In this document: piece by piece, positions 4,802 to 51,262 of the stretch
Numbering within the stretch: position 1 is the stretch's first letter
Layout of the letters: every line of letters begins with the position of its first letter
NCBI GenBank assembly: GCA_963666565.1
Contig: OY762911.1
Location: 1,951,497 to 2,015,496, forward strand
Origin: Thermoanaerobaculia bacterium
Lineage (GTDB): Bacteria > Acidobacteriota > Thermoanaerobaculia > Multivoradales > Multivoraceae
Length of the DNA stretch: 64,000 nucleotides
Direction of reading: 5' to 3'
The notes under the pieces: model-generated
What the model saw: only the letters and a program-made list of their open reading frames with translations
Told to the model about the DNA's origin: nothing
The model's database searches: none
Position numbers and translations under genes: made by a program

Positions 4802-4954
4802 TTGTTGATTCTGCTAGCCTCTCCAGCGGCCGCGCCCTGCCGACCGCAAGAGTCCATTGTCGCACATGGCCCGGCGCGTGAGCGAACGAACCGACCGGGG
4901 CAGGAGAGTGGATTCCGTGGGCCAGACCGTGAACTTCCGATCCGCGGATCTCCC

Positions 4955-6337: not shown

Positions 6338-6340
6338 TAG

Positions 6341-7048: not shown

Positions 7049-7057
7049 GGCCGGATC

Positions 7058-9996: not shown

Positions 9997-10041
9997 CGGA
10001 GGCCCGGCGGCCGAGCGGGTGCTCGGTCGCCGGCGCCGGAT

Positions 10042-18704: not shown

Positions 18705-18898
18705 GGGTGCGCGGGTCTTCCGACCCGCATGTCGGTGCGCGGGTCTTCCGACCCGCATGTCGGTGCGCGGGTCTTCTGACCCGCTGCCGCCGCAGGCGGC
18801 GTCCAGCATCGTCGCCGGCCTCCGGCCGGCGGCCTTCTTGTCCGGGCTGCGCCGCTCCGCGGCTTCGCCCCCGAGCGGGTCGGAAGACCCGCGCACCC
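18705..18898. repeat. MITE/REP-like element with the left TIR tandemly triplicated
   Basis: Three left-TIR units at 18705, about 18734 and about 18763, then internal sequence, then the right TIR at 18875-18898. The internal sequence is nearly identical to the copy at 19552-19717. Confidence 0.85.
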
Positions 18899-28947: not shown

Positions 28948-29126
28948 GGGTGCGCGGGTCCTCCGACCCGCTCAGGGGCGAAGCCGCGGAGCGGCGATCC
29001 CGGACAACGAGGGCTCCTGCCCAGGTTCGGCGACGAAGGGGTGCGCGGGTCTTCCGACCCGCAACCGTCCCCGGAGCGGGTCGGAAGACCCGCGTACCCG
29101 GAGCGGGTCGGGAGACCCGCGCACCC
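28948..29126. repeat. Compound MITE/REP-like element (left TIR, 66-bp spacer, then a minimal left TIR-13 bp-right TIR hairpin, then an extra right TIR)
   Basis: TIR units at 28948-28971, 29039-29062, 29076-29099 and 29103-29126. Confidence 0.8.
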
Positions 29127-31919: not shown

Positions 31920-34900
31920 TCACGGCGCCCTCGCCTGATCGTACGCCCGCCTGAACACGACCTCGGACATCCACCGCTTGAAGCCGTCGTTGTCCATGAA
32001 CTGCTTGAACAGCTCAGTGTCGTCCTTCATCACGTTCTGCATCGCGCGGAGCAGGGCCCGGTCGTGCTCGATGCGGGTGTTCTCGCGGTCGGAGTTCCGG
32101 CGAGCGTTGCGAAAGGCCGCGTCGGAGGCGACCCTGGCGGGAATGTCGAACGCGATCATCCGCTGGACGCGGTCTTCGTCCGCCCAATCATCCGCTGGAC
32201 GCGGTCTTCGTCCGCCCATTCGATGCCGCCGAAGTGGTCGTTGAACGCCTTGACGATGTTCGAGAGGTGGTCCAGTTCGGGTTCCGGCCGGTGGCCGTCG
32301 CCGGCGGGGGGCGTCGGCTCGACCTCGGCGTCCTCGTCGGGCAGGAGGATCTTCCGGATCGCCTGTTTCTCGGCCCGGTAGCTGTCCATGTCGACCGCGT
32401 CGAGGATGCCTCGCGCGAGATCCTCCTCCCGCGGCGCCGGCAGCTTCGGGATCAGGAAGTTCAGGAAGATCGACCGCTTCTCCCAGCCGGCGTTCGAGAA
32501 CGGGAGGATGGAGGAGAGGAAGCCGTAGGCGCGCGCGAACGCCTTGGCCTTTCCCTTGAAGTCGACCTGCCCGTCCTCGTCGAGTTCGCTCAGGTAGACC
32601 GCGACGCACTCGTCGAGGATCGGGTCGAGCCGGTCGCGCTCGGCGCCGTCCAGATAGCGCTCGACGAACAGGTCGACCTGCTCCGCCGAACAGACCTGCG
32701 CCGCGTCGAGGCCAGCCTGCAGGTCGTGCAGCCGGTCGGGGTCCGGCTCGTCGGCCAGGATCGTGCCGCGGTAGTAGTTCGCGAACGAGTCGCGGATGAT
32801 CTCCGTGTCGTTCAGGAAGTCGAGCACGAACACGTCGTGCTTGCCGGGGTGCGCCCGGTTGAGCCGCGAGAGGGTCTGCACCGCCTTGATGCCGGCAAGC
32901 GTCTTGTCGACGTACATCGTGTGCAGCAGCGGTTCGTCGTAGCCGGTCTGGAACTTGTCGGCGCAGACCAGGAACCGGTAGGGGTGTTCCCGGATCTTCG
33001 TCGCGATCCGGCTGGACGGGAAGCCGTTGAGCGAGGCTTCCGTGACCCTCGCGCCGCCGTATTCGTGCTCGCCCGAGAAGGCGACGATCGCCCGGTACGG
33101 GCTCTTCCTCGCGTCCAGGCAGTCGCGGATGGCGTGGAAGTACTGGATCGCGCGCTGGACGCCGTTCGTGACCACCATGGCCCGCGCCTCGCCGCCGATC
33201 TTGCGCGGCGCGGCGACCCGGTCGTGGAAGTGGTCCGCCACGATCTCGGCCTTCAGCCGGATGGCGTGGTCGTGCCCCTCGACGAAGCGCCGCAGCTTCC
33301 GCTGCGCCTTCTTGACGTCGAACTCCGGGTCGTCCTCGACGCTCTTTGCGAGCCGGTAGTAGCTCCTGACCGGCGTGTAGTGCTTCAGCACGTCGAGAAT
33401 GAAGCCCTCCTCGATCGCCTGCTTCATCGAGTAGGTGTGGAAGGCGCGGCGCCTGACCGTGCCGTCGGGTTGCGGTTCGGGAACTCCGAAGAGCTCCAGC
33501 GTCTTGTTCTTGGGTGTTGCCGTGAACGCGAAGTAGCTGGCGTTCGACAGCATCTTGCGCGACTCCATCAGGCGGTTGATCCGGTCCTCGTAGGTCTCCT
33601 CCTCGCCGCGGGCGCCGGCTTCGGAGAGGGCGCCCGAGACCGCGGCGCTGGTCCGGCCGCCCTGGCTTGAGTGGGCCTCGTCGATGACGATCGCGAACCG
33701 GCGTCCGCGCTGCTCGTTGCCGATGGCGTCCAGGACGTGGGGGAACTTCTGGATCGTCGTGATGACGATCTTCTTGCCGCCTTCGAGGAACTGGCGGAGG
33801 TCCGCCGAGCGGTCGGCGTGGCCGACGGTGGCGCCGACCTGCGCGTACTGCCTGATCGTGGCGTGGATCTGGCGGTCGAGAATGACCCGGTCCGTGACGA
33901 CGACGATGGAGTCGAAGACCGTGCCGCCGCCGCTTCGTCCCTGGGAGTTCGGGTCGCCGCCGCGCCCGTCCGGCCCGCTCGGTCGATGGTCCTCGGCCTC
34001 TTCGGCGCGCGGCTCGACGTCGCGGTTGCCGCCGCGCCGCTCGAGCCCGATCAGCCGGTGGGCCAGCCAGGCGATCGAGTAGCTCTTGCCGCTGCCCGCC
34101 GAGTGCTGGATCAGGTAGCGCCGGCCCGCGCCGTGCTCGGCCGCGTCGGCCAGGAGCCGGCGGACCACGTCGAGCTGGTGGTAGCGCGGCCAGATCTGCG
34201 TCTTCTTCTTCCGGCCCGTCTTCTCGTCCTTCGATTCGACGATCTGGGCGTAGTTCTCGACGATCTCCGTCAGGCTCTCACGAGTCAGGACCTCGCGCCA
34301 CAGGTAGTCCGCGGCCAGACCGTCAGGGTTGGGCGGGTTGCCGGCGCCATCGTTCCAGCCCCGGTTGAAGGGCAGGAACCAGGACGCCTTGCCTCGCAGG
34401 TGGGTGCAGAAGCGCACCTCCCGCTCGTCCGCCGCGAAGTGGACGATGCAGCGGCCGAACTCGAACAGCTTCTCCCGCGGGTTGCGGTCCTTCCGGTACT
34501 GCTCGACGGCGTCGCTGACCGTCTGCTTGGTCAAGCTGTTCTTCAGTTCGAACGTGACGACCGGCAGGCCGTTGACGAACAGCGCCAGGTCGAGCGCCAG
34601 TTGAGCCCGGTCGCCGCTGTAGCGAAGCTGCCGCGTGACGGTGAAGCGGTTCAGCTCGAAGCGTTGCCGCGCGGCCTCGTTGCCCTCCGACGGCGTGCCG
34701 TAGAACAGCTCCAGATCGTGCGCGCCGTGCCCGATGCCGTTCCGCAGCACGTCGATGGTCCCGCGCTTCGCGATCTCGCCCTGCAACCGGGCGAGGAACT
34801 TCCGCCGCGCCGGCCCGTCCTCGTCCAGGGCCAGGCCGTCCGCGGCGTCGGGCTGCGTGGCTTGGAGGAAGGCCGAGAGCTGGGTGAAATCGACGCAGTA

Positions 34901-35095
34901 GTTCCGGTCGTAGTCGCGGGGGTCGCCGGGGGTCCAGCCGGCGGTGGTGGGGGCCGTGGTGCGGGCGCTGCCGGAGGCGGGGCTCGGTTCGGCCGGTTGG
35001 GGGAGTTCGCCGGGCTTCGGCGGGTCGCAGGGGTGGCCGGTGAGGGCCGTGCAGATGAGGCGCTCGAGGCCGCGTTCGGACGTGTCGGTGGTCAC
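31920..35095 (-). pseudogene. hsdR: Type I restriction enzyme R subunit (HsdR), frameshifted about 75 codons before the native C-terminus by a 32-bp tandem duplication
   Basis: HsdR_N motifs (VVTFELKN), helicase motifs (SAGSGKSYS Walker A, DEAHSSQ motif II) and the C-terminal domain. ORF 32156..35095 ends ...EWADEDRVQRMIGRTKTASSG*. The native continuation ...WADEDRVQRMIAFDIPARVAS... to the stop at 31920 is in another frame (track ORF 31920..32609). Confidence 0.8.
32155..32218. repeat. 32-bp perfect tandem duplication (atcatccgctggacgcggtcttcgtccgccca x2) that frameshifts hsdR
   Basis: Direct reading: copies at 32155-32186 and 32187-32218. 32 is not a multiple of 3, and the duplicated peptide WADEDRVQRMI appears in both reading frames. 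Confidence 0.9.
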
Positions 35096-36280: not shown

Positions 36281-36399
36281 GACGCCGGCTATCTTAGACG
36301 CAGGGGCCCGTGGGTGTCGCGGTGGCCAGTGAACCCGGCTCCAGGTCGGCAAGTGCCCAGGGCGTCACCTTTGGCCCGGCAGCTTCCGCAGACGAGAAG

Positions 36400-39300
36400 A
36401 TGTGCATGGACTTGGAGACTGCACCCCGCGGTTCAACGGTGGTGTACTGTCTCGCCTTCCGTGACCTTGGAGGAACGAGGTGGGGGTGCTTGCCGGCGCG
36501 CCGGCGAACTTTCCGGCCCGAGTACGTCGAGATGCCGTTACCAGGAGGGCCCGCTGCCAAGCTCGGTATCCGCTACGAGAAGTGGTGGACGCTCTCGGAG
36601 TTCGTTCGAATGCTCCACGGAGAGACAGACTCGATTCGGCTGGAGGAGCCCGGTCTTGATGCAGCAGAGTTCGTTGTGAGGAACGGCTCGCAGCGCGAGT
36701 TTCATCAGGTAAAGCGCCGCAACCCGAGCGGGAAGTGGAGCTTGCCAGCGCTTAAGTCCGAAGGTGTTCTTCAAGCGATGGGGCGGAGGCTGGCCAACAG
36801 CGCCGACTGCTTTGTCTTCGCATCAAGCTCTGACGCGCCGGAGCTCTCCGATCTGTGTGACACCGCTGGCGGATCAGCTTCAATCGAAGAGTACCGACGG
36901 GTCTTCCTCAAAGCCGACTCGCGCCGAGAGCCCTTTGACGAGCTGCGCCGAGCGTGGGGCTGCAGCCTTGAGGAGACGTTCAATCGGCTGCGGCGAATCG
37001 AGGTCAGTACGATCAACGAGCGCGAACTGCGAAAGACCGTCGAACGAGGGTTGCGGGCACTCTTCATCTCGAACCCGGCCGACGTGGAGAAGACGCTACT
37101 GGCGATGGTCGATGACTCCTTGCATCAGACCCTTACACGCCAGGGACTTAGGGAGACCCTCACCCGTAGCGGCTACCAGATGCGGCACCTCAACAACCCA
37201 GAGGACGCGGCCGGGGCCGTACGACGAGCGACCGATGATCACTACCTCGTGAGGGCCCAGAAGCGGCTCATTCAAGAGCGACTCGTTCCAACGGACGCCG
37301 CAAGGGTGGTGCTTTCTCGCCTGGGCGAAACGTCGACGGACCTTGTCCTGGTTGGGAAGGCCGGCGTCGGCAAGACGGCCTGTATCGTTGAGGTAGTGCG
37401 CGCCTTGCGAGAGCAGCGCGGTATGCCAGTCTTGGTCTTTCGCCTCGATCACCATACGTCGGCACGGTCCACTAGAGAGATTGGCCAGCAGTTGGAACTG
37501 GAGGAGTCGCCCGCGTTCGTTCTGGCCGCCGCAGCGGAGTCCGCGAACCGGTCTGGCGTTCTGATCGTGGATCAGTTGGACGCGGTCAGCACGATGCCTG
37601 ACAGGGGGTCCGGCGCTCTTGATGTGGTTGAGGCGCTGCTTGACGAGACCCGAGGCCTTCGGGCGCGGGTTCCCGTTCACACGATAGTCGTGAGTCGGGA
37701 GTTCGATTGGGAGCACGACCCGCAGCTTAGGGGGCTTGCCGCCAAGTCCGCGGGGCCGGTCAAGGTCACGGAGTTCCATGTGGCCCAGGTCAAGGAGATC
37801 CTGGCGGACGCTGGTTTCGATCCGACACTCTTCGGGGAGAATCAACTCCAGGTCCTACGGCTCGCGCAGAATTTGTCGCTGTTCTTGGACACCGGTTTCT
37901 CTGCCTCCTGCGCTCCGGCGTTCCGCACGGCCAAGCACCTGTTCGACCGATACTGGTCCTACAAGCAGCGAGTGGTTGACAGGAGAGCGGGGAATCTAGC
38001 GGGCCGCTGGACCGAGATCGTGCGGAGGGTCTGCGACGAGATGACGTCGTCTCAGCGTCTCGCGGTTCCGAAGGAGAGGCTCGACGAAGTGCCAGAGGAC
38101 TATCTGCAACAGATGGCGTCGGAGGGCGTGCTGACGTTCGACGGCCACTGCTACGGCTTCGGGCACGAGAGCTTCTTCGACTATTGCTCCGCGCGTCTGT
38201 TTTGCGGCCGGTCGGAGCGACTTGTGTCGTTGTTGACGGGTGCAGAGCAGCATCTTTTCCGACGTTCCCAGGTGCGCCAGGTTCTGGTCTACCTTCGCGA
38301 CGAGGACTTCCCCAGGTACGTGGAAGAGGTTGGTGAGCTCCTCTCGGATGAGGGGATTCGCGTCCACATCAAGCATCTTGTGTTCGCGCTCTTGGCTGGT
38401 GTCGAGGAGCCGAGGGCTGAGGAGTGGGCGATCTGGGAGACGTGGATCGGACCAGAACTGAAGGCGATCGAGGCCGATGCACAAGGTCAGAACGCGTTGT
38501 CGGCCCTCGCGTGGCGGTCGTTCTTCGTTGCAGGCTCGTGGTTCCGCATCGCCGATGACCGCGGGAAGGTCGAGGAGTGGCTTGGCGGCCGTGGAGACCA
38601 GCTCGGCGACTTGGCGGTGAGATACCTCTTGGCGCATCATCGCCACTCGCCTGATCGAGTCTCGGCTCACCTCAATCCGTATGTCGACTCCGGCGGTCGG
38701 TGGCCCCAACGCTTTCTGTACTTCATGGGGCGCGTCCAGCACGGCGCCAGCAGATCACTCTTCGAGCTGTTTCTCCGTTTGGTGGACAACGGTGTACTGG
38801 ACGATGGCCGGGCGATGTTCGCCTCCAACGAGACGTTCTGGGACATGCTCCGGGATCTGAAGGAGGATCGGCCGGAGTGGATTGCTGAGGCGCTCGCCCA
38901 CCGGCTCCGACGCCGGCTACGACTCCGCCTTGAGGACGATTCGGACGCCTATCCAGGACGGCTCCTGGGCAACCACGGCTCGGGCTCCCGCGTGTTTGTG
39001 AAGTCGGCTGCGAACGCTCCCGCTGCGTATGTGAAGCACGTCCTGCCGGCGGTGCTTGAGGTCGTCGATTCGACGGTTACGGGGGAGAAACCGCCGAGGC
39101 GGGATACGGTTTGGTTTCTCCTTCACGAGTTCAGCCATCTCAGTGCCGACGAGACATGTCTGAAGTGCCTCGGCCAAGCGCTGGCGACGGTGGCTCAGGT
39201 CGATAGAAGATCGGCAAGAGAGCTGATTGCCGACTTGCGAGGGCGAGATAGCCACACGGCGAACTACCTGCTATTGGCGCTCTATCGGGGGGAGCCAACC

Positions 39301-41046
39301 CGGTATGCCGACGAGGCAATGTCACTGCTGTGTGAGGAACCCTGGCGACTTGAATGCGGCGCAGGCGGTAACGGATGGTGGTACGCGATGGAGACGATCC
39401 GGGCGACCTTTCCTCACTGTTCTGCGCCCACACGTGCGAGGCTCGAGGCACTGATTGTCGGACATGCCGACTGGTTTGAGCGGACCAAGGAAGGCCGACA
39501 ATCGGAGGGTCGTGCTCGGTTCGCCCTCCTTTCGGCAATCCCTGCGGATCTCCGCGGCAGGCAAGCGCATAAGCACTTTCAGGAGTTGGAGCGGAAGTTC
39601 GGGGAACCTCCGGGGAAACCACGCGGGCCGGAGGGCGGTCTCGTTGGGCCTCCGATACCTGCCGAGTCCACCGTCAAGATGACGGATCAGCAGTGGCTTC
39701 GGGCCATCGCGAAGCACTCCGCCGAGTGGTCGCCTCGCCGTTATTCACGGAACATACAGAAGGGCGGTGCGCGGGAATTGGCGGGAACTCTGGTCGAACG
39801 CACCCAGGAGGAACCAGAGCGGTTCGCTCGTCTGTGCCTGCGTTTCCCGGCCGATGCGAACCCCGCCTATCTCGACGGCGTCTTGTCTGGCCTGAAGGAG
39901 GCTTCGATAGCGAATGAGTTGAAGCTCCAGGTCTGCCGCAAGGCGTTCGGTGAGGCTTTCGATTACTGCGGTCAGTCGGTAGCGGACGTCCTCGGTGGCC
40001 TTGAGTCTCCAGTCCCGGCGGAGGCCATGGGGATGCTTGACCGGCTTGCGACTGAGCACAGTGATCCCAGTTCGGAGGCGTGGCAGAAGAAGACGGCGGA
40101 CGGTCGTCGAGTCTTCAACGGCGACATCTACTGGAGCGGTATCAACTCGACACGTGGACAGACAGCCCTTGCGGTCGCCAAGCTCATCTCTGCGGACGAC
40201 TCGTGCCTGACGCCGTTCCGGCCGACCCTTGATCGGATGGTCGAGGACGAAAGCCCGGCCGTCGTTTCTTGCGTCATTGGCACGCTCTTGGCCGTTGCCT
40301 ATCACGAGCCCAAACTCGCGCTGCGGCTCCTCGGAAGAACGAACCTGTCCGAGGTCCGGCTGCTCGCTACTCGGCACGCTCGACATCTTCTTCACGGCAC
40401 CCTGCATCGGAACTTCGACCAGGTCCGCCCGTTTCTCAAGCGCATGATTCAGTCGTCGGAACCGGAGGTCTGCCAAGCAGGCGCTCGCTTGCTCAGCGTC
40501 GCGGCGCTGAGCCACGAAGGAGCGGCGGAGCTTGTAGCGCGGTGTCTCGGGGGCAGCGCCGCCCACCGGCTCGGTGTGTGCGAGGTGGCCGCTGCCAACG
40601 TGGCCGACTCGGAGTGTGGGGCGTGGTGCGAGCGAACCCTCTCGGAACTGTTCGATGACGCCGATGCCAATGTCCGAAAAGAGGCTGCGACCTGCTTCCG
40701 GCATGTCGAGAACGAACCGCTCGAAGAGTACGCGGACCTGGTCCAGGCGTTCTGTAGCAGCAGGGCCTATCGCGACGACCCGTTCTGGCTGCTCGACGTC
40801 TTGGAGACGGTGCGAGGTCGACTGCCGGGCGTAACGATCATGGCCTGCGAACGGTTCTTCGACCGATTCGACGGGCTTGAGCAAGGCCGGACTCGTGGGC
40901 TCCGTACGATTGTCAAGCTGATCTTCCGGGCGTACCAGCAGTACGAGCAAGAGAGTTGGGGTCAGCGGTCACTGGATCTCATCGACAGACTCTGTCTTGA
41001 AGGCATCTACGAGGTCGGAAAGGAACTCGATCACTTTGATCGGTAG
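36400..41046 (+). CDS. Giant P-loop NTPase (NACHT/STAND-like) with an N-terminal putative PD-(D/E)xK-like domain and about 1000 aa of C-terminal alpha-helical repeats; candidate antiphage Avs-like protein
   Basis: Walker A LVLVGKAGVGKTACIV, then Walker B VLIVDQLDAV (hhhhDxxD, NACHT-like), about 70 aa downstream. The N-terminal region carries a D...(E/Q)xK pattern (LEEPGLDAAEFVV...REFHQVK). The long C-terminal region is ARM/HEAT-like helical with no enzymatic motif. Start is ATG at 36400 or 36406, or GTG at 36310. Confidence 0.6.
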   Translation: MCMDLETAPRGSTVVYCLAFRDLGGTRWGCLPARRRTFRPEYVEMPLPGGPAAKLGIRYEKWWTLSEFVRMLHGETDSIRLEEPGLDAAEFVVRNGSQREFHQVKRRNPSGKWSLPALKSEGVLQAMGRRLANSADCFVFASSSDAPELSDLCDTAGGSASIEEYRRVFLKADSRREPFDELRRAWGCSLEETFNRLRRIEVSTINERELRKTVERGLRALFISNPADVEKTLLAMVDDSLHQTLTRQGLRETLTRSGYQMRHLNNPEDAAGAVRRATDDHYLVRAQKRLIQERLVPTDAARVVLSRLGETSTDLVLVGKAGVGKTACIVEVVRALREQRGMPVLVFRLDHHTSARSTREIGQQLELEESPAFVLAAAAESANRSGVLIVDQLDAVSTMPDRGSGALDVVEALLDETRGLRARVPVHTIVVSREFDWEHDPQLRGLAAKSAGPVKVTEFHVAQVKEILADAGFDPTLFGENQLQVLRLAQNLSLFLDTGFSASCAPAFRTAKHLFDRYWSYKQRVVDRRAGNLAGRWTEIVRRVCDEMTSSQRLAVPKERLDEVPEDYLQQMASEGVLTFDGHCYGFGHESFFDYCSARLFCGRSERLVSLLTGAEQHLFRRSQVRQVLVYLRDEDFPRYVEEVGELLSDEGIRVHIKHLVFALLAGVEEPRAEEWAIWETWIGPELKAIEADAQGQNALSALAWRSFFVAGSWFRIADDRGKVEEWLGGRGDQLGDLAVRYLLAHHRHSPDRVSAHLNPYVDSGGRWPQRFLYFMGRVQHGASRSLFELFLRLVDNGVLDDGRAMFASNETFWDMLRDLKEDRPEWIAEALAHRLRRRLRLRLEDDSDAYPGRLLGNHGSGSRVFVKSAANAPAAYVKHVLPAVLEVVDSTVTGEKPPRRDTVWFLLHEFSHLSADETCLKCLGQALATVAQVDRRSARELIADLRGRDSHTANYLLLALYRGEPTRYADEAMSLLCEEPWRLECGAGGNGWWYAMETIRATFPHCSAPTRARLEALIVGHADWFERTKEGRQSEGRARFALLSAIPADLRGRQAHKHFQELERKFGEPPGKPRGPEGGLVGPPIPAESTVKMTDQQWLRAIAKHSAEWSPRRYSRNIQKGGARELAGTLVERTQEEPERFARLCLRFPADANPAYLDGVLSGLKEASIANELKLQVCRKAFGEAFDYCGQSVADVLGGLESPVPAEAMGMLDRLATEHSDPSSEAWQKKTADGRRVFNGDIYWSGINSTRGQTALAVAKLISADDSCLTPFRPTLDRMVEDESPAVVSCVIGTLLAVAYHEPKLALRLLGRTNLSEVRLLATRHARHLLHGTLHRNFDQVRPFLKRMIQSSEPEVCQAGARLLSVAALSHEGAAELVARCLGGSAAHRLGVCEVAAANVADSECGAWCERTLSELFDDADANVRKEAATCFRHVENEPLEEYADLVQAFCSSRAYRDDPFWLLDVLETVRGRLPGVTIMACERFFDRFDGLEQGRTRGLRTIVKLIFRAYQQYEQESWGQRSLDLIDRLCLEGIYEVGKELDHFDR

Positions 41047-41176: not shown

Positions 41177-42550
41177 TCAGGGGAGCGCAACGGCCGTGTG
41201 GCGCACGTCAAGCTTCCCGGTGACCGCGTCGGCAGTCACTCGTGCGCGGAACTCGCTGAGAAGGGCGATGTGGCGGTGCGTGCGGTCGATTGCGGCTGCG
41301 TGTCGGTCCGTGACTTTCCGGCAGAACTGCGCGATGGCGACCTGCTCGGGCGGCGGTGGCAGGCAGACGCGCAACCGCGAGACGATTTCGGCATTCAGGT
41401 TGGACATCGTAGAGCCGACCGATGCGAGTTCGAGTGCATCGCGGGTGCGTGACGAGTTCAGAACGAGAAGGAGGTAGTCGGGCGAACAGACCGTCTTTCT
41501 TGCCCGGAGTCGCAGGCTGCCAGTACCGCAGATCCAGCCTGCTTGGGCGGAACGCACCAGGGCGGAGCGACCGACTTCGCCGCGCCGGGCGATGACGACG
41601 TCGCCAGTAGCGAGTCGGTGCCTTGAGAGTTCCGCCGCCTTCCGTCCGGTGACGGCTATGGAGCGATCTGGCGCTATCCTGCCTTCGCTCAGGTGCGACG
41701 GATTGATGACGGGAACGCCGCCGTCGATGTACTCGTCGGCATGGAGTTGACTACCGAACGGCCCGGTCTGAATCGAGTTCGACGCTGTGCCAAGTGCAAG
41801 TTCAGGCCAGTGCGCCGGCACTTCCGTCAGCCATTCGACCTCCGATTCCTTGTATTCGAGATAGGGCTGGCCGGTCCGGACGTCGATCTGGCCGGTGACG
41901 GCCTGATGCACGATGGCCTGTTGCTGCTCCTCCAGCAGCCCGATCAGCTTCTCCTTCTTCCGAATGGCCCGACGGATGTGCCGGTCGATGTAGTCGAGAA
42001 AGCGGGCGATGGCGGTCTGTTCGGCTAGCGGAGGCAGCGTTAGCGGCAGGTCTCGCCAGCGTTCGGTTGGAAGCCTGCGCGTGCCATGCCCTGCTTCGTC
42101 GATCAGAGGAAACAGGCCGTCGCGAGCGCAAGCGAGGAACGACGCCAGATAGGCCGCGTTGAGCGCGGGACAGGGGCGTAGGGCTTTCATGTCCTGGTTG
42201 ATCGTTACCGGCGAGGTCGTTCTGGCGATGGGCACTCTGCGGGCAAGGATCATTCCGCGGACGACCATGAGCACGGCGGGAGGCTGAACCAACCGAAGTG
42301 CGGTTTCGGCGAGTGCGGCGTCTGTGACCCGCACACGCGAATCGCCGATCACCATGGTCTTCATGTCCTTCGGCGTGACCCATGGAATGTCGCCGTTCCA
42401 GAAGCGACCGTCTTCCATGCTGGGCGTCATTCCTCCCGAGATCGAGGCGCATTGCCGGAGCTTCCTCATCTTCCAATGCGCCGGTACCTCGCCCAGCCAC
42501 TCCACGCCGGAGTCCTCGTACTCGCTGTAGGCCTCCAGCGCGTGCGTCAT
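41177..42550 (-). CDS. hsdS: Type I restriction-modification specificity subunit (HsdS), two target-recognition domains
   Basis: Two TRDs are separated and followed by conserved coiled-coil regions (LAEQTAIARFLD..., PPPEQVAIAQFC...). The ATG at 42550 overlaps the upstream stop (ATGA). Confidence 0.85.
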   Translation of the reverse strand: MTHALEAYSEYEDSGVEWLGEVPAHWKMRKLRQCASISGGMTPSMEDGRFWNGDIPWVTPKDMKTMVIGDSRVRVTDAALAETALRLVQPPAVLMVVRGMILARRVPIARTTSPVTINQDMKALRPCPALNAAYLASFLACARDGLFPLIDEAGHGTRRLPTERWRDLPLTLPPLAEQTAIARFLDYIDRHIRRAIRKKEKLIGLLEEQQQAIVHQAVTGQIDVRTGQPYLEYKESEVEWLTEVPAHWPELALGTASNSIQTGPFGSQLHADEYIDGGVPVINPSHLSEGRIAPDRSIAVTGRKAAELSRHRLATGDVVIARRGEVGRSALVRSAQAGWICGTGSLRLRARKTVCSPDYLLLVLNSSRTRDALELASVGSTMSNLNAEIVSRLRVCLPPPPEQVAIAQFCRKVTDRHAAAIDRTHRHIALLSEFRARVTADAVTGKLDVRHTAVALP

Positions 42551-42903
42551 TCCTCGGACTGCTCGGCAGGTACCTTGGGTTCAATGGCTGGCTCGCTCTC
42601 GCCATGCCACCTTGTGCGTTCCATGAATCGGCGGAGGATGGGGTCCGTTGGGCGATAGTCCCGTATCCAGGCGTTGATCTCGCCGTTGGTCATGTCTTCG
42701 AACTTCCTGCTGAGGCGTTTCCGTTGCTCCCGCTCGTAGGCGACGCAGTCGAAGTCGTTCTCCTCTCTCTTGGCCGTCACTCCACCGGGGCCTTTCTGAC
42801 GCCCGAGTCCGCTACGAGGCGAAGCGGAAGGAGCTTGGCTCTCGGCGACCGCTCCCAGATACGACGGAGGATGGGGTCCGTGATCTCCCGGTTGTTCCTC
42901 CAC
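42547..42903 (-). pseudogene. Remnant of the PIN-gene 3' region (tail domain only), translationally coupled to hsdS
   Basis: ...FDCVAYEREQRKRLSRKFEDMTNGEINAWIRDYRPTDPILRRFMERT is homologous to the C-terminal tails of the PIN copies. Its stop overlaps the hsdS ATG. Confidence 0.35.
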
Positions 42904-43511
42904 TCCACCTGCTCCTCGGGAGTCATGGCTTCTAACTTCCGACTGATGCGGTCCCTCTGCTCGCGCACGAAGCCGACGCAGTCGAAGCTCTTGTCGTTCG
43001 GGTCGCGGAAGTTCTCGCCCAGGATGGCCGGAGGCTCGTACATCTTGATCCGGGGATGACCGAGTTCCCGGTTGACGGCGTCGAACTTGGGCCCGCGGCG
43101 GAAGTTCAGCAGGTGCTTGTAGTTCCAGCTCGCAAGCATGTCGACGTTTGCGAGCGTGGCGAAGGCGACGTGCAGGGCGGCGGGTCGCGCGGCCGGGTCC
43201 AACGCGCCCGCCTCGATGTAGCGGTCGGCGAGTTCCTCGGCTGCTCCCGACGGCTCCAGGAGCTCCGAGTGCTCCCGCGGCACCGTACCTAGCAGCGCTC
43301 TCGCGGCCTCGGTCGCCGCGTCCAACTCGCCCACGACCGCGGCCGACAGGACGAGGGTCATGTCGGCGGCACGGAACCCCTCGAACAGAGCCCGGGACGA
43401 CTCCCTGATCCAGTACTTCTCGTCCTCGCAGGCGGAGAACACGGAGGAGTCGACGTACACGCGGGGCGTTTCCGGCCAGGACGGAACCGGGTACGTCGTC
43501 TCAGCGGTCAT
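42777..43511 (-). CDS. PIN-domain nuclease-like protein with a C-terminal extension (distal copy C)
   Basis: PIN signature: N-terminal Asp (RVYVDSSVF), the acidic residues, and the C-terminal T/SxNxKH-type motif (NVDMLASWNYKHL). The ATG overlaps the stop of an hsdM C-terminal fragment. Confidence 0.6.
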   Translation of the reverse strand: MTAETTYPVPSWPETPRVYVDSSVFSACEDEKYWIRESSRALFEGFRAADMTLVLSAAVVGELDAATEAARALLGTVPREHSELLEPSGAAEELADRYIEAGALDPAARPAALHVAFATLANVDMLASWNYKHLLNFRRGPKFDAVNRELGHPRIKMYEPPAILGENFRDPNDKSFDCVGFVREQRDRISRKLEAMTPEEQVEWRNNREITDPILRRIWERSPRAKLLPLRLVADSGVRKAPVE

Positions 43512-43690
43512 CGTCCACCTCTTTCGACGGACCGGGCGCCATGCCGCCCATGATCTGGGCCAGCAGGCCGTCGGTCATCGTCTCCAGCGTCAGGCTGTCA
43601 GCCTGGAACTCCGCCAGCGGCCGCATGGGCTCGGGCCTGTAACAGTAGCGGTCGAAGCCGATCTCGTAGCGGGTCTTCATGGTGACTGGA
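43501..43690 (-). pseudogene. Duplicated hsdM 3' terminal fragment (encodes the last ~59 aa of HsdM)
   Basis: MKTRYEIGFDRYCYRPEPMRPLAEFQADSLTLETMTDGLLAQIMGGMAPGPSKEVDDDR aligns to the HsdM C-terminus (VKTSYEISFNRYFYKPEPMRPLAEIQADILALETQTEGLLAEIMGGMVPGPSKEVDDDR). Confidence 0.6.
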
Positions 43691-44130
43691 GTTGTACCAC
43701 GCATCGGCGGCTCAGGGCACCGCCTCGCGGCGCGGCAACGCCTTGATGCCGCCGTTCTTCGATCCCTGTCGCGGAGGTTCGCCGCGGTCTTGTTCGGCCG
43801 CGCCAGCAGGCGGCCCAGCGGTTCAGGCCGGGAGATCGTGATCCTCGGAGGGCGTGTCCTGCACGCTGGCATTGCGATCCCGCAGGCGCTCGACAAGACG
43901 CCGCAGCTTCGGGTCTGTCGGTAGGTAGTTGCGCATCCAGGCGCCTATCTCGTCGCTGCTCATGCCTTCGAGCTCCTTGCCGGCCGCGGCGATCACGGCC
44001 GCCGCAGCCAGCCTCAAAGCCTCGAACCGGCTCAAACCGTCTAGACACGCGCAACGGTCGCGGGCCTCGCCTTGCCGGCGACCGCCCGGCCAAGCACTGC
44101 GGCGAGGGACCGTGATCGCTCAGACAGTGG

Positions 44131-44475
44131 TTAGCGGAGATGCTCGCGCAGAGAAGCGCCGGGCTTCGGCCAGTCGTACCACGATTCCCAGAACACGCCC
44201 TTTGTCCCGCTTTCGCGTCGCGTACACCCAAAGTGCAGGCGGGTCCCCTCAAGGTATCCGCTGACGCGGTGCGGCTTGTCAGTAACGACGTCCAAGCCGA
44301 ACCCCGTCGCGCTCTCTATCCCCGCGAGACAGCTTGCGAGCGTCGCCCGCTCGGCACCCATTGTGATCGTTGACGACTCGCCGCCGCACGCGACGACCAC
44401 AGCGAAGCCGACGCTCACGACCGCTACTAGCGCCAAGCGGCGCACGTTCCCTAGCGCTTTCTCCATGAAAGCCAA
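44131..44475 (-). CDS. Small putative lipoprotein (114 aa) inserted within the degraded middle PIN copy
   Basis: Signal peptide with lipobox (LALVAVVSVGFAVVVACGG). The sequence is unrelated to the PIN module. Confidence 0.4.
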   Translation of the reverse strand: MAFMEKALGNVRRLALVAVVSVGFAVVVACGGESSTITMGAERATLASCLAGIESATGFGLDVVTDKPHRVSGYLEGTRLHFGCTRRESGTKGVFWESWYDWPKPGASLREHLR

Positions 44476-44987
44476 AGCGTATCACGCGGACCGCGACCGC
44501 GGCCGGGAGCTTCTTCCGCTGCTCGCGCTGGAAGGCGGCCTGCAAGGCGATGGGTCCCGTCGCCGCATCCACCGCGCTCCCTTCGACGTAGCGGTCGGCG
44601 AGTTCCTCGGCTGCTCGCGACGGTTCCAGCAACTCCGAGTGCTCCCGCGGCACTTTGTTTGGCAGGGCTCTCGCGGCCTCGGTCGCCGAGTCCAACTCGC
44701 CCGCGACCGCGGCCGACAGGACGAGGGTCACGTCGCCGGCACGGAAACCCCTCGAACAGAGCCCGGGACGACTCGCTGGTCCAGTACTTCTCGTCCTCGC
44801 AGGCGGAGAACACGGAGGAGTCGACGTACACGCGGGGCGTCTCCGGCCAAGACGGAACCGGGTACGTCGTCTCAGCGGTCATCGTCCGCCTCCTTCGACG
44901 GACCGGGCGCCATGCCGCCCATGATCTCCGCAGGCCCTCGGGCTGCGGCTCCAGGCTGTCAGCCTGGATCGCCGCCAGTGGCCGCAT
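44279..44987 (-). pseudogene. Degraded PIN-domain gene (middle copy B), frameshifted and with its central part replaced
   Basis: The N-terminus MTAETTYPVPSWPETPRVYVDSSVFSACEDEKYW (track ORF 44451..44987) goes out of frame. The middle (track ORF 44279..44731) matches the PIN central region (MTLVLSAAVAGELDSATEAARALP...), then diverges. Confidence 0.5.
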
Positions 44988-45176
44988 GGGCTCGGTTCTC
45001 TAGTAGCGGTTGAAGCTGATTTCGTAGCCGGTCGTCACGATCCTGGAGTTGTACCACGCGTCGGCGGCTCAGGGCACCACCTCGCGGCGCGGCAGGCCTT
45101 GCTGCCGCCGTTCTTGGATCCGTGTCACGAAGACTCGCCTCGACTCTGTTCGGCCGCCAGCAGGCGGCCCAGCGGT

Positions 45177-45902
45177 TCAGGCCGGGAGATCGTGATCCTG
45201 GGAGGGCGTGTCCTGCACGCTGGCATCGCGATCCCGCAGGCGCTCGACCAGGCGCCGCAGCTTCGGGTCTGTCGGTAGGTAGTTCCGCGTCCAGGCACCG
45301 ATCTCTTCGCTGGTCATGCCTTCGAACTCCTTGCCGAGCTTCTTCCGTTGCTCGCGCATGAAGCCGACGCAGTCGAAGCTCTTGTCATTCGGGTCGCGGA
45401 AGTTCTCGCCCAGGATGGCCGGAGGCTCGTACATCTTGATCCGGGGATGACCGAGTTCCCGGTTGACGGCGTTGAACCTGGGCCTGCGGTAGACGTTCAG
45501 GAGGTGCTTGTGGTTCCAACTCGCGAGTGTGTCGACGTTTGCGAGCGTGGCGAAGGCGACGTGCAGGGCGGCGGGTCGCGCGGCCGGGGCCACCGCGCCC
45601 GCTTCGATGTAGCGGTCGGCGAGTGCCTCGGCTGCTCGCGACGGTTCCAGAAACTCCGAGTGCTCCCGCGGCACCGTACCTGGCAGGGCTCTTGCGGCCT
45701 CGGTCGCCGAGTCCAACTCGCCCGCCACCGCGGCCGAGAGGACGAGGGTCATGTCGCCGGCACGGAACCGCTCGAACAGAGCGCGAGACGACTCCCTGAT
45801 CCAGTACTTCTCGTCCTCGCAGGCGGAGAACACGGAGGTGTCGACGTAGATGCGGGGTGTTTCCGGCCAGGGCGGTACCGGGTACGTCGTCTCAGCGGTC
45901 AT
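45177..45902 (-). CDS. PIN-domain nuclease-like protein with a C-terminal extension (proximal copy A, coupled to hsdM)
   Basis: The same PIN motifs as copy C (IYVDTSVF...NVDTLASWNHKHL), with a distinct C-terminal tail (...GAWTRNYLPTDPKLRRLVERLRDR). The ATG overlaps the hsdM stop. Confidence 0.65.
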   Translation of the reverse strand: MTAETTYPVPPWPETPRIYVDTSVFSACEDEKYWIRESSRALFERFRAGDMTLVLSAAVAGELDSATEAARALPGTVPREHSEFLEPSRAAEALADRYIEAGAVAPAARPAALHVAFATLANVDTLASWNHKHLLNVYRRPRFNAVNRELGHPRIKMYEPPAILGENFRDPNDKSFDCVGFMREQRKKLGKEFEGMTSEEIGAWTRNYLPTDPKLRRLVERLRDRDASVQDTPSQDHDLPA

Positions 45903-47910
45903 CGTCCACCTCCTTCGACGGACCGGGCACCATGCCGCCCATGATCTCGGCCAGCAGACCCTCGGTCTGCGTCTCCAGGGCCAGGATGTCGGCCTGGATC
46001 TCCGCCAGCGGCCGCATTGGCTCGGGCTTGTAGAAGTAGCGGTTGAAGCTGATCTCGTAGCTGGTCTTCACGGTTCTGGAGTTGTACCACGCATCCGGGG
46101 CCCAGGGCAGGACCTCGCGGCGCAGAAAGGCCTCGATGCCGCCGTCCTCCTGGAGCGGGATCTGCTCGGTGTCGCGGAGGCTCGTGTCCGGCTCGTACTC
46201 GACGACGGCGGTCCGGCCATCGACCTTCGCCTCGAACAGGCCGCGCAGCGGGTCGGCGGCGACGCCCCGCTTGTGGACCTTCCGGATCACCGGCGGCGCC
46301 TCTTCGCCCTCGCCGCGGACGCCAGTGGCCTTGAGTCCGCGGATCTCGGCGGCCTTGTAGGCGCGGCACCCGTCGATTCCCTCGATGCGGAGCGGCCGCT
46401 CGACGGTGACCTTCCAGTAGCCGAAGGCCTCGTTGTCGAAGACCTTGCTTTCCTCGGTCTCCTCGAAGGCGAGGAAGGCGTCGCAGATGCGGGCGATGTC
46501 CTCGTCGCCGAGTTCGCAGTTCTTCTTGCCGAGGTTCTTGCGCAGCGGCTGGAACCGCTTCGTGGCGTCGATGAGCTGCACCTTGCCCCGGCGGTGCTCC
46601 GGCTTGCGGTTCGTCAGCACCCAGACGTAGGTGGCGATGCCGGTGTTGTAGAACATGTTGAGCGGCAGGGCGACGATCGCCTCCAGCCAGTCGTTCTCGA
46701 CGATCCAGCGGCGGATGTTGCTCTCGCCCTGGCCGGCGTCGCCGGTGAAGAGGGAACTGCCGTTGTGGACCTCGGCGATCCGGCTGCCGAGCGGCGTGTT
46801 CCGCTTCATCTTGGCGAGCTTGTTGGCCAGGAAGAGCATCTGCCCGTCGCTGCTGCGGGTGACGAGGGAGAACTCCGGGTCGCCGCCGTGCTCGATCAGG
46901 AACCGCGGGTCGCGCATGTCCTTCTTGCCGCCCATGCGCGCGAGGTCCGTCTTCCAGCTCTTGCCGTAGGGCGGGTTGGAGAGCATGAAGTCGAACTCGC
47001 GGGCCGGGAAGGCGTCGTTCGAGAGCGTGGAGTGCTCCGGCCCGCCGACGATGTTGTCGGCGGCCGCTCCCTCGCCCTTGAGGAGAAGGTCGGCCTTGCA
47101 GATGGCGTAGGTCTCGGCGTTGATCTCCTGGCCGAAGAGGTGCGTGGAGACCTCCTTGCCGCGCTCGGCGGCGAGCGACTGGAGCACGTCCTCGGCCACG
47201 GTGAGGATGCCGCCGGTGCCGCAGGCGCCGTCGTAGAGGGTGTAGGTGGCGGACCGGAGTCGGTCGGCCACGGGCAGGAAGACGAGGTTCGCCATCAGCT
47301 TGACCGCGTCGCGCGGCGTGAAGTGCTCGCCGGCCTCCTCGTTGTTCTCCTCGTTGAAGCGGCGGATCAGTTCCTCGAAGATCGAGCCCATGCCGTGGTT
47401 GTCGAGGCCGGGGTGCTTCACGCCGCCGTCGCCGTCCGTCACCGGCTCGGGGCCCAGGTTGATGTCGGGCGAAGTCAGCTTCTCGATCAGCGTGCCGAGC
47501 GCGTCGGCCCGCGAGAGCCGCGGGATCTGGTTGCGGAACTCGAAGTTCTCGAGGATGTCCTGGACGTTCGGAGAGAAGCCGTCGAGCCACGCCTCGAAGT
47601 CGGCCCGGAGCCGCTGCCGGCCGGCGCGGGCGCGCAGGTCGCGCAGCGTGTAGCTGGACGTGTTGTAGAAGTCCTGCTTCGCCGCGTCCCGCAGGGTGGC
47701 GTCCTGGTCGACGATCTCGAGTTCGTCGAGAGTTGCCTTCACCTGCAGGACGTGCTGCTTGCGCGGCTCCAGCACCGCGTCGAGCCGCCGCAACAGGGTC
47801 ATCGGCAGGATGACGTCGCGGTACTTGCCGCGGACGTAGAGGTCGCGGAGGACGTCGTCGGCGATGCCCCAGATGTAGCCGGTGATCCAGCTCAGGGAGG
47901 CGTTGTCCAC
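45892..47910 (-). CDS. hsdM: Type I restriction-modification N6-adenine DNA methyltransferase subunit (HsdM)
   Basis: HsdM_N (IWGIADDVLRDLYV...DVILPMTLLRRLD), an AdoMet motif (YDGACGTGG) and the catalytic NPPY (LSNPPYG). Confidence 0.9.
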   Translation of the reverse strand: MDNASLSWITGYIWGIADDVLRDLYVRGKYRDVILPMTLLRRLDAVLEPRKQHVLQVKATLDELEIVDQDATLRDAAKQDFYNTSSYTLRDLRARAGRQRLRADFEAWLDGFSPNVQDILENFEFRNQIPRLSRADALGTLIEKLTSPDINLGPEPVTDGDGGVKHPGLDNHGMGSIFEELIRRFNEENNEEAGEHFTPRDAVKLMANLVFLPVADRLRSATYTLYDGACGTGGILTVAEDVLQSLAAERGKEVSTHLFGQEINAETYAICKADLLLKGEGAAADNIVGGPEHSTLSNDAFPAREFDFMLSNPPYGKSWKTDLARMGGKKDMRDPRFLIEHGGDPEFSLVTRSSDGQMLFLANKLAKMKRNTPLGSRIAEVHNGSSLFTGDAGQGESNIRRWIVENDWLEAIVALPLNMFYNTGIATYVWVLTNRKPEHRRGKVQLIDATKRFQPLRKNLGKKNCELGDEDIARICDAFLAFEETEESKVFDNEAFGYWKVTVERPLRIEGIDGCRAYKAAEIRGLKATGVRGEGEEAPPVIRKVHKRGVAADPLRGLFEAKVDGRTAVVEYEPDTSLRDTEQIPLQEDGGIEAFLRREVLPWAPDAWYNSRTVKTSYEISFNRYFYKPEPMRPLAEIQADILALETQTEGLLAEIMGGMVPGPSKEVDDDR

Positions 47911-48260
47911 TTCAGTCGGCTCGCTCGGCGGGCGGAGGCGTCATCTGTCGCCGCGGACCCAGTCCAGCAGCGCCATGACTTCGCGTGCGGCAACCGGTGC
48001 TCCTTTGGCGGTCGCGTGTAGACGACGGCGGCGTTTGGCTTGCCGAGACGGACCTCGCCTGCCTGCGCCTGCCGGATCAACTCGGCGTCGGGGTCGGGCG
48101 GCTCGGCTGGCCAGTGCTCGGCTTCGTATGCCTCGACGAGGGCGACGAGGACTTCGAGTTCGTCTCCCTCGGGCGTGCCCGGCGCGGCGCCCATCAGACG
48201 GTCGACGGCCTTCAGTGCCTCCTCGTAGTCCCTCTCGTTCCTGATCGCCTTGATCTTCAA
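47892..48260 (-). pseudogene. HigA-like antitoxin N-terminal fragment (HTH region not recognisable); overlaps the hsdM start by 19 nt
   Basis: The first ~55 aa (MKIKAIRNERDYEEALKAVDRLMGAAPGTPEGDELEVLVALVEAYEAEHWP) match the conserved N-terminal region of HigA-type antitoxins. The remainder lacks the expected HTH. Confidence 0.35.
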
Positions 48261-51041: not shown

Positions 51042-51083
51042 GGTTGGGCTCCTTAGGCTGGCTGACTGGCTCGCCGCTTCGCG

Positions 51084-51262
51084 GCTTCGCGCTCGATGCG
51101 GGTCGGAAGACCCGCGCACCCGGTATTCGGCTTCGCGCTCGATGCGGGTCGGAAGACCCGCGCACCCGGTATTCGGCTTCGCGCTTGGTGCGGGTCGGAA
51201 GACCCGCGCACCCGGTATTCGGCTTCGCGCTTGGTGCGGGTCGGAAGACCCGCGCACCCAGC
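51084..51262. repeat. Tandem array of four 47-bp REP units (cggtattcggcttcgcgctYgRtgcgggtcggaagacccgcgcacc)
   Basis: Direct reading: four head-to-tail units, each containing the GCGGGTCGGAAGACCCGC hairpin, with essentially identical 23-bp linkers. Confidence 0.9.

Follow-up and report, generated by a model that had tools for sequence, protein, structure and literature searches.

The stretch of DNA analysed here (the window, 64,000 nucleotides of contig OY762911.1 of a Thermoanaerobaculia bacterium) has on its minus strand the whole of a type I restriction-modification (R-M) operon, with hsdM, hsdS and hsdR all recognised by Pfam, in which the interval between hsdM and hsdS is occupied by a tandem array of PIN-domain genes and small partner genes. 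Coordinates are positions in the window, and the array is read on the minus strand throughout. Self-BLAST of 42400-46400 together with repeat finding was used to define the repeats and revealed three tandem units, A to C, each made of about 257 bp of the hsdM 3′ end, a PIN gene and a spacer. After the three units comes a gene of 77 amino acids (aa). Units A and C are intact and unit B is dead. The principal features, in the direction of reading and with hsdM′ denoting the duplicated copies of the hsdM 3′ end, are as follows.

45892-47910, minus strand: hsdM, methyltransferase subunit, 672 aa (Pfam N6_Mtase, 1.8e-50; HsdM_N, 5.9e-20)
46148-45892, minus strand: the hsdM 3′ segment that is duplicated, about 257 bp, with boundaries set by self-BLAST
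45177-45902, minus strand: PIN-A, gene of unit A, 241 aa, intact; PIN domain (45902-45408) fused to a partner (tail type 1, or T1, 45407-45177)
45115-45176, minus strand: 62-bp spacer behind tail type 1, with the hairpin GGCCGCC-TGCT-GGCGGCC and then the junction to the hsdM′ remnant
43501-43758, minus strand: hsdM′ remnant of unit C, 87.5% identical to the functional 3′ end, with 12/7/13 substitutions over the three codon positions
42777-43511, minus strand: PIN-C, gene of unit C, 244 aa, intact; PIN domain (43511-43017) fused to a partner (tail type 2, or T2, 43016-42777)
42547-42780, minus strand: T3, stand-alone partner gene, 77 aa, GTG start, matching exactly a 77-aa protein in the public collection
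41177-42550, minus strand: hsdS, specificity subunit, 457 aa (Pfam Methylase_S, 1.8e-20, in two stretches)

The repeat matches are beyond chance (E = 0 to 1e-19), with unit A (46148-45349) matching unit C (43758-42958) at 91% over 801 bp and, over a shorter extent (46148-45552), matching unit B (45114-44531) at 86% over 598 bp. A further match joins the end of the tail, the spacer, the hsdM′ remnant and the 5′ part of the PIN gene at 45336-44531 to the same series at 43982-43161 (88% over 823 bp), while homology confined to the tail links 45378-45265 with 42754-42641 (76%). Unit B spans 45114-43759 and unit C 43758-42777, and the PIN domains of PIN-A and PIN-C share 88% protein identity. An earlier reading of the DNA from its letters and open reading frames (ORFs), referred to below as the first-pass annotation, had described a tandem module of hsdM 3′ end and PIN gene with one degraded copy and with intact copies at 45177-45902 and 42777-43511, all of which is borne out, although its estimate of about 180 bp for the hsdM piece falls short of the measured length.

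The genes between hsdM and hsdS overlap both neighbours: a chain of stop-start overlaps leads from the module to hsdS, and an overlap and a shared ribosome-binding site tie it to hsdM. The final codons of hsdM contain the Shine-Dalgarno sequence AAGGAGGT for PIN-A, and the two genes overlap by 11 nt (ATG at 45902-45900, hsdM stop TGA at 45894-45892), so that of the two ATGA overlaps proposed by the first-pass annotation, at 45902 and 42550, only the latter is present. Moreover, the ATGA at 42550 joins hsdS to T3 and not, as had been supposed, to a PIN gene, with T3 in turn overlapping the PIN-C stop codon through GTGA. T3 had been taken for a tail-only fragment restoring the coupling to hsdS; the coupling holds, but T3 is a real gene of 77 aa starting from the GTG at 42780, with orthologues directly upstream of hsdS in the related loci L004, L088 and L089. 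The hsdM′ remnants ahead of PIN-B and PIN-C measure 243-258 bp. In unit C the hsdM frame stays open over the final 59 codons, and the Shine-Dalgarno sequence ahead of PIN-C is kept, whereas unit B keeps only the last 18 codons in frame, such that the HsdM C-terminal ORF once attributed to each copy exists as a long in-frame ORF in unit C alone. The spacer is 91-93% conserved behind the type-1 partner genes of L013-L015 and L018. Its hairpin was considered as a terminator or structured RNA and rejected, the fold being not significantly stable, broken in unit B and devoid of a T-run.

What had been described as a C-terminal extension of roughly 100 aa on the PIN proteins measures 76-79 aa, and homology marks it as a fused version of a small partner gene. 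A scan of GTDB genomes for relatives of the PIN domain returned 80 loci, in which free-standing relatives consist of a PIN gene of about 154 aa followed by an ORF of 50-77 aa that overlaps the PIN stop codon, in phyla that include Bacteroidota, Planctomycetota, Omnitrophota and Elusimicrobia. One motif, K-x-F-D-[CA]-V-x-x-x-R-x-x-R-D-x-[IL]-S-x-x-[IL]-x-x-M-[TS]-x-E-E, is common to the PIN-A tail, the PIN-C tail, the 77-aa gene and these stand-alone downstream ORFs, and a match to the partner profile lies no more than 360 nt downstream of 60 of the 61 free-standing PIN genes and of all 34 that are linked to R-M genes (94/95 in total), the two ORFs overlapping by 4-20 nt. Tail type 1 and its spacer also occur as a stand-alone partner gene in other arrays. 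On this homology PIN-A and PIN-C are single-chain fusions of a two-gene module resembling a toxin-antitoxin system, and T3 adds a further partner as a gene of its own.

At least 484 proteins belong to the partner family, every one named 'hypothetical', and none of the Pfam or NCBIfam models matches the family. PIN and partner form the pair of co-directional small genes expected of a type II toxin-antitoxin system, and a Leptospira plasmid homologue lying beside rep bears the annotation VapC-family toxin, with the same small ORF directly after it. No conserved upstream ORF was present at the loci examined that could encode an antitoxin with a ribbon-helix-helix, AbrB, helix-turn-helix (HTH) or Phd DNA-binding domain, and the phage genomes searched yielded no homologues. 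An AlphaFold2 (AF2) model of T3 consists of three helices, with a predicted local distance difference test (pLDDT) score of about 90 over residues 11-50, and a profile search of the PDB with the partner gave matches at chance level only. The pattern of strand, helix and helix with a G-x-T/S turn had raised the idea of a ribbon-helix-helix antitoxin, which is neither supported nor excluded, the AF2 monomer having three helices and lacking a match in the PDB. The partner is probably an antitoxin or inhibitor of the PIN.

The presence of a PIN-domain protein between hsdM and hsdS, as proposed in the first-pass annotation, is upheld by structure prediction and by relatives of the family. Homologue searches led through a graded series to proteins of about 150 aa with 40-46% identity that carry PF01850 or PF13470, and among relatives at 35-46% identity L030 (29.7 bits) and L037 (26.0 bits) pass the PF01850 gathering cut-off of 23.6, with PF01850 matched by 6 of the 29 members of the alignment. 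The profile searches suggested at the outset as a check on the fold have therefore come out in its favour, by way of these relatives. An AF2 model of PIN-A built on the family alignment has a pLDDT of 82.7 overall and above 90 over residues 20-160 and, in agreement with the three-layer alpha/beta/alpha arrangement around a parallel beta-sheet that defines the PIN fold, has as its best Foldseek matches in the PDB VapC26, VapC20, VapC15, VapC2 and others (probability 1.0, template modelling score 0.60-0.70 on the target).

The fusion to the partner coincides with the loss of an active-site residue, and this coincidence is the most informative feature of the locus. In the 96 members aligned, position 111 (PIN-A numbering), the first residue of a D-A-L-H-I-A motif, is Asp in 80 of the 80 members not fused to a partner (Glu once among them), these being PINs that are free-standing, fused to HsdM or adjacent to HsdM. 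The 16 partner-fused PINs carry Ala or Val there without exception, and in PIN-A and PIN-C the residue is Ala. Other residues are conserved despite this change, namely D21, S23, E62, H114, D124 and S128-W129-N130. The model places position 111 in the N-terminal half of the helix leading into strand 4, where it appears to be the canonical metal-binding carboxylate of helix H4, which according to the passages of Matelska et al. (2017, PMC5499597) on the active site is almost invariant, spans both metal sites and is central to metal binding in PINs. The same passages state that PIN activity needs at least four acidic active-site residues (Matelska et al., 2017, PMC5499597). In PIN-A and PIN-C that acidic set is incomplete: D21 and E62 are present, position 111 is Ala, the residue after strand 4 is Asn130, and D124 lies before strand 4. 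Because this apparent H4 Asp is lost, PIN-A and PIN-C are probably not active nucleases, or are strongly attenuated ones, and their role as nuclease toxins, as first proposed, is doubtful.

The synonymous divergence (dS) between the PIN domains of PIN-A and PIN-C is 0.128, as compared with 0.08-0.156 for orthologues between species-level genomes and 0.15 for hsdM of the window against L003. The A-C divergence thus stands at the level found between species, such that the duplication is old and the recent amplification first envisaged is not upheld. The hsdM′ remnants retain about 87% identity to the functional 3′ end, and their substitutions fall evenly across the codon positions, as neutral decay would predict; only their last 50 nt or so, holding the Shine-Dalgarno sequence and the PIN start, remain 92-96% identical. 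The junction from spacer to hsdM′ is identical in B and C, indicating that it was made once and then copied.

The tails have a different history from the PIN domains to which they are attached. Tail type 1 is found in units A and B and in L001, and tail type 2 in unit C, L003, L008 and L010. Between the two types dS is 0.6-1.5, against 0.13 for the attached PIN domains, which makes the tail types ancient lineages that recombination has brought together. Comparisons inside a type give a dS of 0.12-0.31 and a ratio of non-synonymous to synonymous divergence (dN/dS) of 0.13-0.49, with the PIN-C tail giving a dS of 0.16-0.31 and a dN/dS of 0.31-0.38 against its orthologues in L003, L008 and L010. 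On these ratios each tail type is under purifying selection, and the diversifying selection that the first-pass annotation had read into the diverged tails is not supported. Homology between A and C ends at 45349, just past a block containing a run of 85 nt of perfect identity (45472-45388), and a second identical run of 59 nt (45588-45530) lies within the same background of 92% identity. By their pattern of identity these runs are gene-conversion patches, one of which abuts the point where the tail types diverge. Such an abrupt end of homology beside an identical run is characteristic of recombination, or of gene conversion, here at the conserved beginning of the partner.

One alternative is that PIN-A and PIN-C are active toxins or abortive-infection effectors that were amplified within the operon and have tails under positive selection. 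The fold is confirmed, D21, E62, H114, D124 and the S-W-N motif are kept in both copies, the ORFs are intact in at least seven species, and a position inside an R-M operon has precedents in PrrC and in the PIN genes that Matelska et al. (2017) linked to type I R-M. Against this, the tails form two ancient lineages, each under purifying selection and without diversification in situ, the age of the copies equals that of species splits, and the tail is the module's own partner in cis and would be expected to restrain any activity. We regard this alternative as unlikely.

The reading that we favour, and consider a somewhat probable one, is that the array is a stack of three old cassettes in an intact type I R-M operon, in which the PIN-partner copies are probably dead or attenuated and have been retained for a binding, regulatory or immunity-like role. 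Several observations weigh against it. PIN-A, PIN-C and their tails have no direct match in Pfam (E≤0.1), NCBIfam or PADLOC, and PIN-A and PIN-C themselves do not reach the gathering score of PF01850 or PF13470. A sequence-profile search of the PDB with the PIN alignment returned nothing significant. Position 111 was equated with the canonical H4 carboxylate from motif logic and from the secondary structure of the model, and alignment by hhalign of the family profile to two canonical VapC proteins from neighbouring loci paired only the DTSV motif. The family already has Asn where most PINs carry an acid after strand 4, and such an atypical active site might tolerate the loss of the Asp. The model of the partner has no structural match in the PDB by Foldseek, known antitoxins included, and that the partner inhibits the PIN, or that the unfused forms contact the R-M complex, is something we infer. 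Finally, dN/dS for the fused PIN domain is 0.4-0.95, a weak constraint that makes slow decay a serious rival.

According to that rival, the array is decaying selfish debris made of functionless toxin-antitoxin relics, in which reading frames persist only because translation of hsdS needs the chain of overlaps. Unit B is plainly dead, the catalytic Asp is gone, in L089 the orthologue of unit C is interrupted by an IS3 element, the pooled pN/pS of the fused PIN domain is 0.63, with pairs involving unit C approaching 0.9, and overlaps do couple PIN-C to T3 and T3 to hsdS. These signs of decay are set against the fused ORFs themselves, which at 241-254 aa are intact in 7 of 7 sequences (A and C of the window, L001, L003 and L008-L010) despite a dS of about 0.1-0.15, and in which all other invariant PIN residues are kept. 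The tails, moreover, are constrained, and the PIN-partner architecture has been kept across a clade whose PIN domains diverge by up to about 33% in nucleotides. Debris is accordingly a rival that deserves to be taken seriously, even if we think it has a low chance of being correct.

Relatives of the locus place the cassettes in a wider setting. The nearest are metagenome-assembled genomes (MAGs) of Acidobacteriota ('Ca. Multivorans', Thermoanaerobaculia), and other R-M-linked loci come from MAGs of Pseudohongiella, Pseudomonadales, Acidimicrobiales, 'Ca. Poriferihabitans' and 'Ca. Aldehydirespirator'. Several of the names and isolate labels indicate that the hosts of these relatives are apparently marine sponges. 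PIN genes are embedded in the type I R-M operon in synteny in at least 25 related loci, in which the interval between hsdM and hsdS holds a variable array of PIN and partner modules. HsdM carries the first PIN as an in-frame C-terminal fusion at 17 of the 27 R-M-linked loci, giving proteins of 775-868 aa where the whole ORF is listed, with one to five partner genes following. These HsdM-PIN fusions occur at the following loci.

L004, L007, L011, L014-L021, L023, L026, L027, L031, L033 and L038

The MAGs concerned are labelled Acidobacteriota, Gammaproteobacteria, Acidimicrobiales, 'Ca. Poriferihabitans' and 'Ca. Aldehydirespirator'. A second PIN, this one joined to a partner, often comes after the HsdM-PIN protein in the 'Multivorans' group. 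The window, L001, L003 and L008-L010, which share the order hsdM, PIN-partner fusion, hsdS, have the PIN-partner fusion alone directly after hsdM. In-frame fusion of the PIN to HsdM argues that the module is an accessory of the methyltransferase and not random cargo. HsdM of the window shares 78-82% protein identity with that of the gammaproteobacterial loci L020, L026 and L033 (Pseudohongiella, Pseudomonadales), an identity across phyla that points to recent cross-phylum transfer of the whole operon of R-M and PIN genes.

A broader interpretation would take the HsdM-linked PINs and their partners as a second effector and immunity arm of type I R-M, circulating among apparent marine-sponge symbionts of different phyla, in which the PIN, fused or coupled to HsdM, would be a guardian nuclease released upon attack on the R-M complex, the variable partners would be inhibitors or sensors (immunity proteins), the hsdM 3′ end would serve as a recombination handle for capturing, displacing and stacking cassettes in the manner of rhs and cdiA orphans, and the fusions lacking the Asp would be self-neutralised 'immunity-only' forms. 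This extension is offered tentatively, as a rather unlikely possibility.

A second assembly from another sample, L089 (ENA ERZ21830300 ctg682048l, 4228-8234), has flanks 96-97.4% identical to the window and a different array, with the order hsdM, partner, orphan, partner, unit C orthologue, T3 and hsdS. The orphan is an ORF of 215 aa in which a C-terminal remnant of HsdM is fused in frame to an Asp-bearing PIN, with a junction that differs from that of the window, and the unit C orthologue is 93.8% identical and truncated by the IS3 element. In the unrelated L027 ('Ca. Poriferihabitans') there is a decayed second copy of hsdM 3′ end and PIN at 71-74% identity, and the orphans in L089 and L027 together indicate that the stacking of cassettes anchored on the hsdM 3′ end is recurrent. 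L089 also bears on whether the tandem copies are a repeat expansion produced by assembly, to which tandem repeats in a metagenome-type assembly are prone. Since the copies differ by 8-14% as well as by large indels, and since this independent assembly contains the same structure of hsdM′, PIN-C, T3 and hsdS, an artefact is ruled out for practical purposes and its chance is negligible; the proteins also lie on a contig of 4.79 Mb.

The variability of the arrays invites a further explanation, that of a programmed cassette store in which the hsdM′ remnants are recombination handles for swapping the PIN or partner variant behind HsdM or fused to it. The layout parallels that of Rhs orphans, orphans with hsdM′ handles and different junctions occur in L089 and L027, backgrounds of 96-97% identity carry different arrays, the units share perfectly matching stretches of 36-85 nt that would permit recombination, and the partner arrays resemble orphan immunity arrays. 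Yet the remnants are 13% diverged with indels and show the substitution pattern of neutral decay, the single junction common to B and C speaks for duplication and not for repeated capture, no recombinase gene is present in the locus, switching would proceed by deletion only, and with stored PIN domains 88% identical in protein there is little to switch. A store of this kind seems to us quite improbable.

Under the favoured reading of old, retained cassettes, the ancestral Asp-bearing PIN would have been a nuclease held in check by its partner, acting either as a second line that comes into play once the R-M enzyme has been put out of action, as PrrC does, or as an addiction module that stabilises the R-M system, the latter being supported by the plasmid context beside rep. 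The window's fusions of partner and Asp-less PIN would be self-neutralised derivatives kept for binding, regulation, immunity and translational coupling to hsdS. The first join would have been illegitimate, linking the spacer behind the tail to the hsdM 3′ end, and unequal crossover would then have produced the third unit, with the decay of unit B, the insertion of a lipoprotein gene, the exchange of tail types by recombination and the gene-conversion patches following later.

Unit B, the dead member of the array, comprises the following parts.

44872-45114, minus strand: hsdM′ remnant of unit B, a non-coding relic broken by stop codons and indels that keeps 87% identity to the functional 3′ end
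44531-44882, minus strand: PIN pseudogene of unit B, N-terminal 117 codons or so, with a +1 frameshift near codon 46
43983-44506, minus strand: 524-bp insertion within the unit B tail, with the 10-bp inverted repeat CCGGCCGCGG/CCGCGGCCGG at its borders
44131-44466, minus strand: small lipoprotein gene, 111 aa from the ATG at 44466, with a lipobox and two conserved Cys
43823-43982, minus strand: 3′ part of the type-1 tail of unit B, a remnant 94% identical to the end of the unit A tail

The hsdM′ remnant has 14 gap columns and 8/9/14 substitutions over the codon positions, about 190 bp of the C-terminal half of the PIN has been deleted at a microhomology of 7 nt, and a 5′ stub of the tail persists at 44537-44507. 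The first-pass annotation had recognised this copy as frameshifted, which stands, but had placed it at 44279-44987; the pseudogene starts at 44882 and the remnant runs to 43823. Its lipobox ORF is likewise a real gene, although the length is 111 aa from the ATG and the insertion that carries it lies inside the tail. A public protein of 111 aa is 100% identical from the fourth codon of the ORF (the ATG at 44466), codon-position GC content is coding-like, and the gene belongs to a family of proteins of about 90 aa (116 representatives at E≤1e-3, of which 22 reach E≤1e-10), which identifies it on sequence grounds as a genuine gene of an uncharacterised family. Scans of Pfam, NCBIfam and PADLOC gave no match to it. 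The 524-bp insertion with its inverted repeat may be a small mobile cassette.

Beyond the array, the operon continues with two further genes.

36310-41046, plus strand: AAA/HEAT gene of 1578 aa between hsdS and hsdR (PADLOC PDC-M54A)
32156-35095, minus strand: hsdR, restriction and translocase subunit, 979 aa (Pfam HSDR_N, SWI2_SNF2, ResIII and T1R_D3-like)

The 1578-aa protein has an AAA/NACHT-like P-loop and C-terminal HEAT repeats and matches the PADLOC candidate defence model PDC-M54A at 4.9e-16; its counterpart in the sister contig L089 consists of two ORFs. In other relatives the site between hsdS and hsdR holds DarT/Macro (DarTG), Mrr or a cytosine methylase, a variety that suggests a second cargo slot of the R-M operon. 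Pairs of DarT and Macro (DarTG) lie in or beside the same R-M operon of relatives, as do pairs of PhdYeFM and PIN resembling canonical VapBC (L003 12364-14119; L004 11688-13413), making the R-M operon a scaffold for toxin-antitoxin or defence modules of several kinds. Directly upstream of hsdM an ORF of 122 aa (47892-48260, minus strand) overlaps the hsdM start and has no Pfam match; an ORF of about 106 aa occupies the equivalent position in L003 and L089, and the N-terminus of the 122-aa product presumably resembles the region preceding the HTH in HigA-type antitoxins. A scan for promoters over 41-48.5 kb found no promoter-like site internal to the operon region, and a terminator scan over the same span found a single terminator-like site, outside the cassette array. 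Hairpins resembling repetitive extragenic palindromic (REP) elements, GCGGGTCGGAAGACCCGC(GCACC), number 21 sites in the 64 kb against 0 expected, for example at 10039, 18706-18787, 29040-29125 and 58147, with none within the cassette array. The REP-like site at 51082-51259 is a tandem array of 3.9 copies of 46 bp directly upstream of a DUF1501 gene.

To our knowledge, toxin-antitoxin and abortive-infection genes in type I R-M operons are familiar, and among them only PrrC is understood. Since cargo of this kind is already known, the locus is not a new category. The PIN and partner family, the HsdM-PIN fusions, the partner-fused clade lacking the Asp, and the partner arrays with their hsdM-3′ orphan cassettes were not found in the curated libraries or the literature examined. 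The locus thereby defines a widespread module of PIN and small partner that has no curated family, and that also exists in a natural, apparently 'dead-site, partner-fused' form stacked via the hsdM 3′ end. The repeat itself is old and mosaic and should not be taken as a sign of recent amplification or positive selection.

Among toxin-antitoxin systems the closest likeness is to VapC, VapBC and FitAB (PF01850), with which the window's PIN family shares the fold, the small gene pair with overlapping frames, and the conserved Asp of strand 1, Glu of strand 2 and Asp before strand 4. It differs in that the partner is downstream or fused and not upstream, without a recognisable DNA-binding domain or Pfam family, that the residue after strand 4 is Asn, and that PIN-A and PIN-C have lost the H4 Asp and lack a direct match to PF01850. 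Phase-variable type I R-M shufflons likewise contain repeated partial copies of hsd genes within a type I locus, but these are inverted hsdS halves accompanied by a site-specific recombinase, whereas here the repeats are direct, derive from the hsdM 3′ end and accompany a single hsdS, and a Pfam scan of the flanking ORFs found no recombinase. The orphan cassettes of rhs and cdiA offer a nearer parallel, in that a full-length gene is followed by fragments with its conserved 3′ region, an effector and a cognate small protein, and in that content varies between close strains. In this case, however, the main gene encodes a DNA methyltransferase and not a secreted toxin, the stored PINs are so alike that only the partner tails differ, and the remnants look neutrally decayed.

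The tie between PIN genes and type I R-M has been noted before, PIN-like genes having been described in transcriptional coupling with hsdM, hsdS and hsdR, in some cases with no antitoxin that could be recognised (section 17 of Matelska et al., 2017, PMC5499597). The general observation is the same as that made here, while that section makes no mention of this PIN and partner family, of HsdM-PIN fusions, of partner-fused PINs lacking the Asp, of partner arrays or of hsdM-3′ cassettes. With PrrC, the anticodon nuclease of the type Ic locus EcoprrI and its 'R-M guardian', the locus shares an accessory gene of nuclease fold inside a type I operon. PrrC associates physically with EcoprrI, and the HsdM-PIN fusions of relatives argue for a similar association. 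PrrC and RloC differ from it in combining an ABC-ATPase with a nuclease, the window's PINs having no such match in Pfam, NCBIfam or PADLOC and adopting the PIN fold; the locus also has an extra small partner and lies between hsdM and hsdS. Fusion to the methyltransferase nonetheless points to a physical link between the type I enzyme and a second nuclease, making the module a candidate for a new R-M accessory ('guardian') system, for which the natural comparison is between Asp and Ala at position 111 and between fused and split partners.

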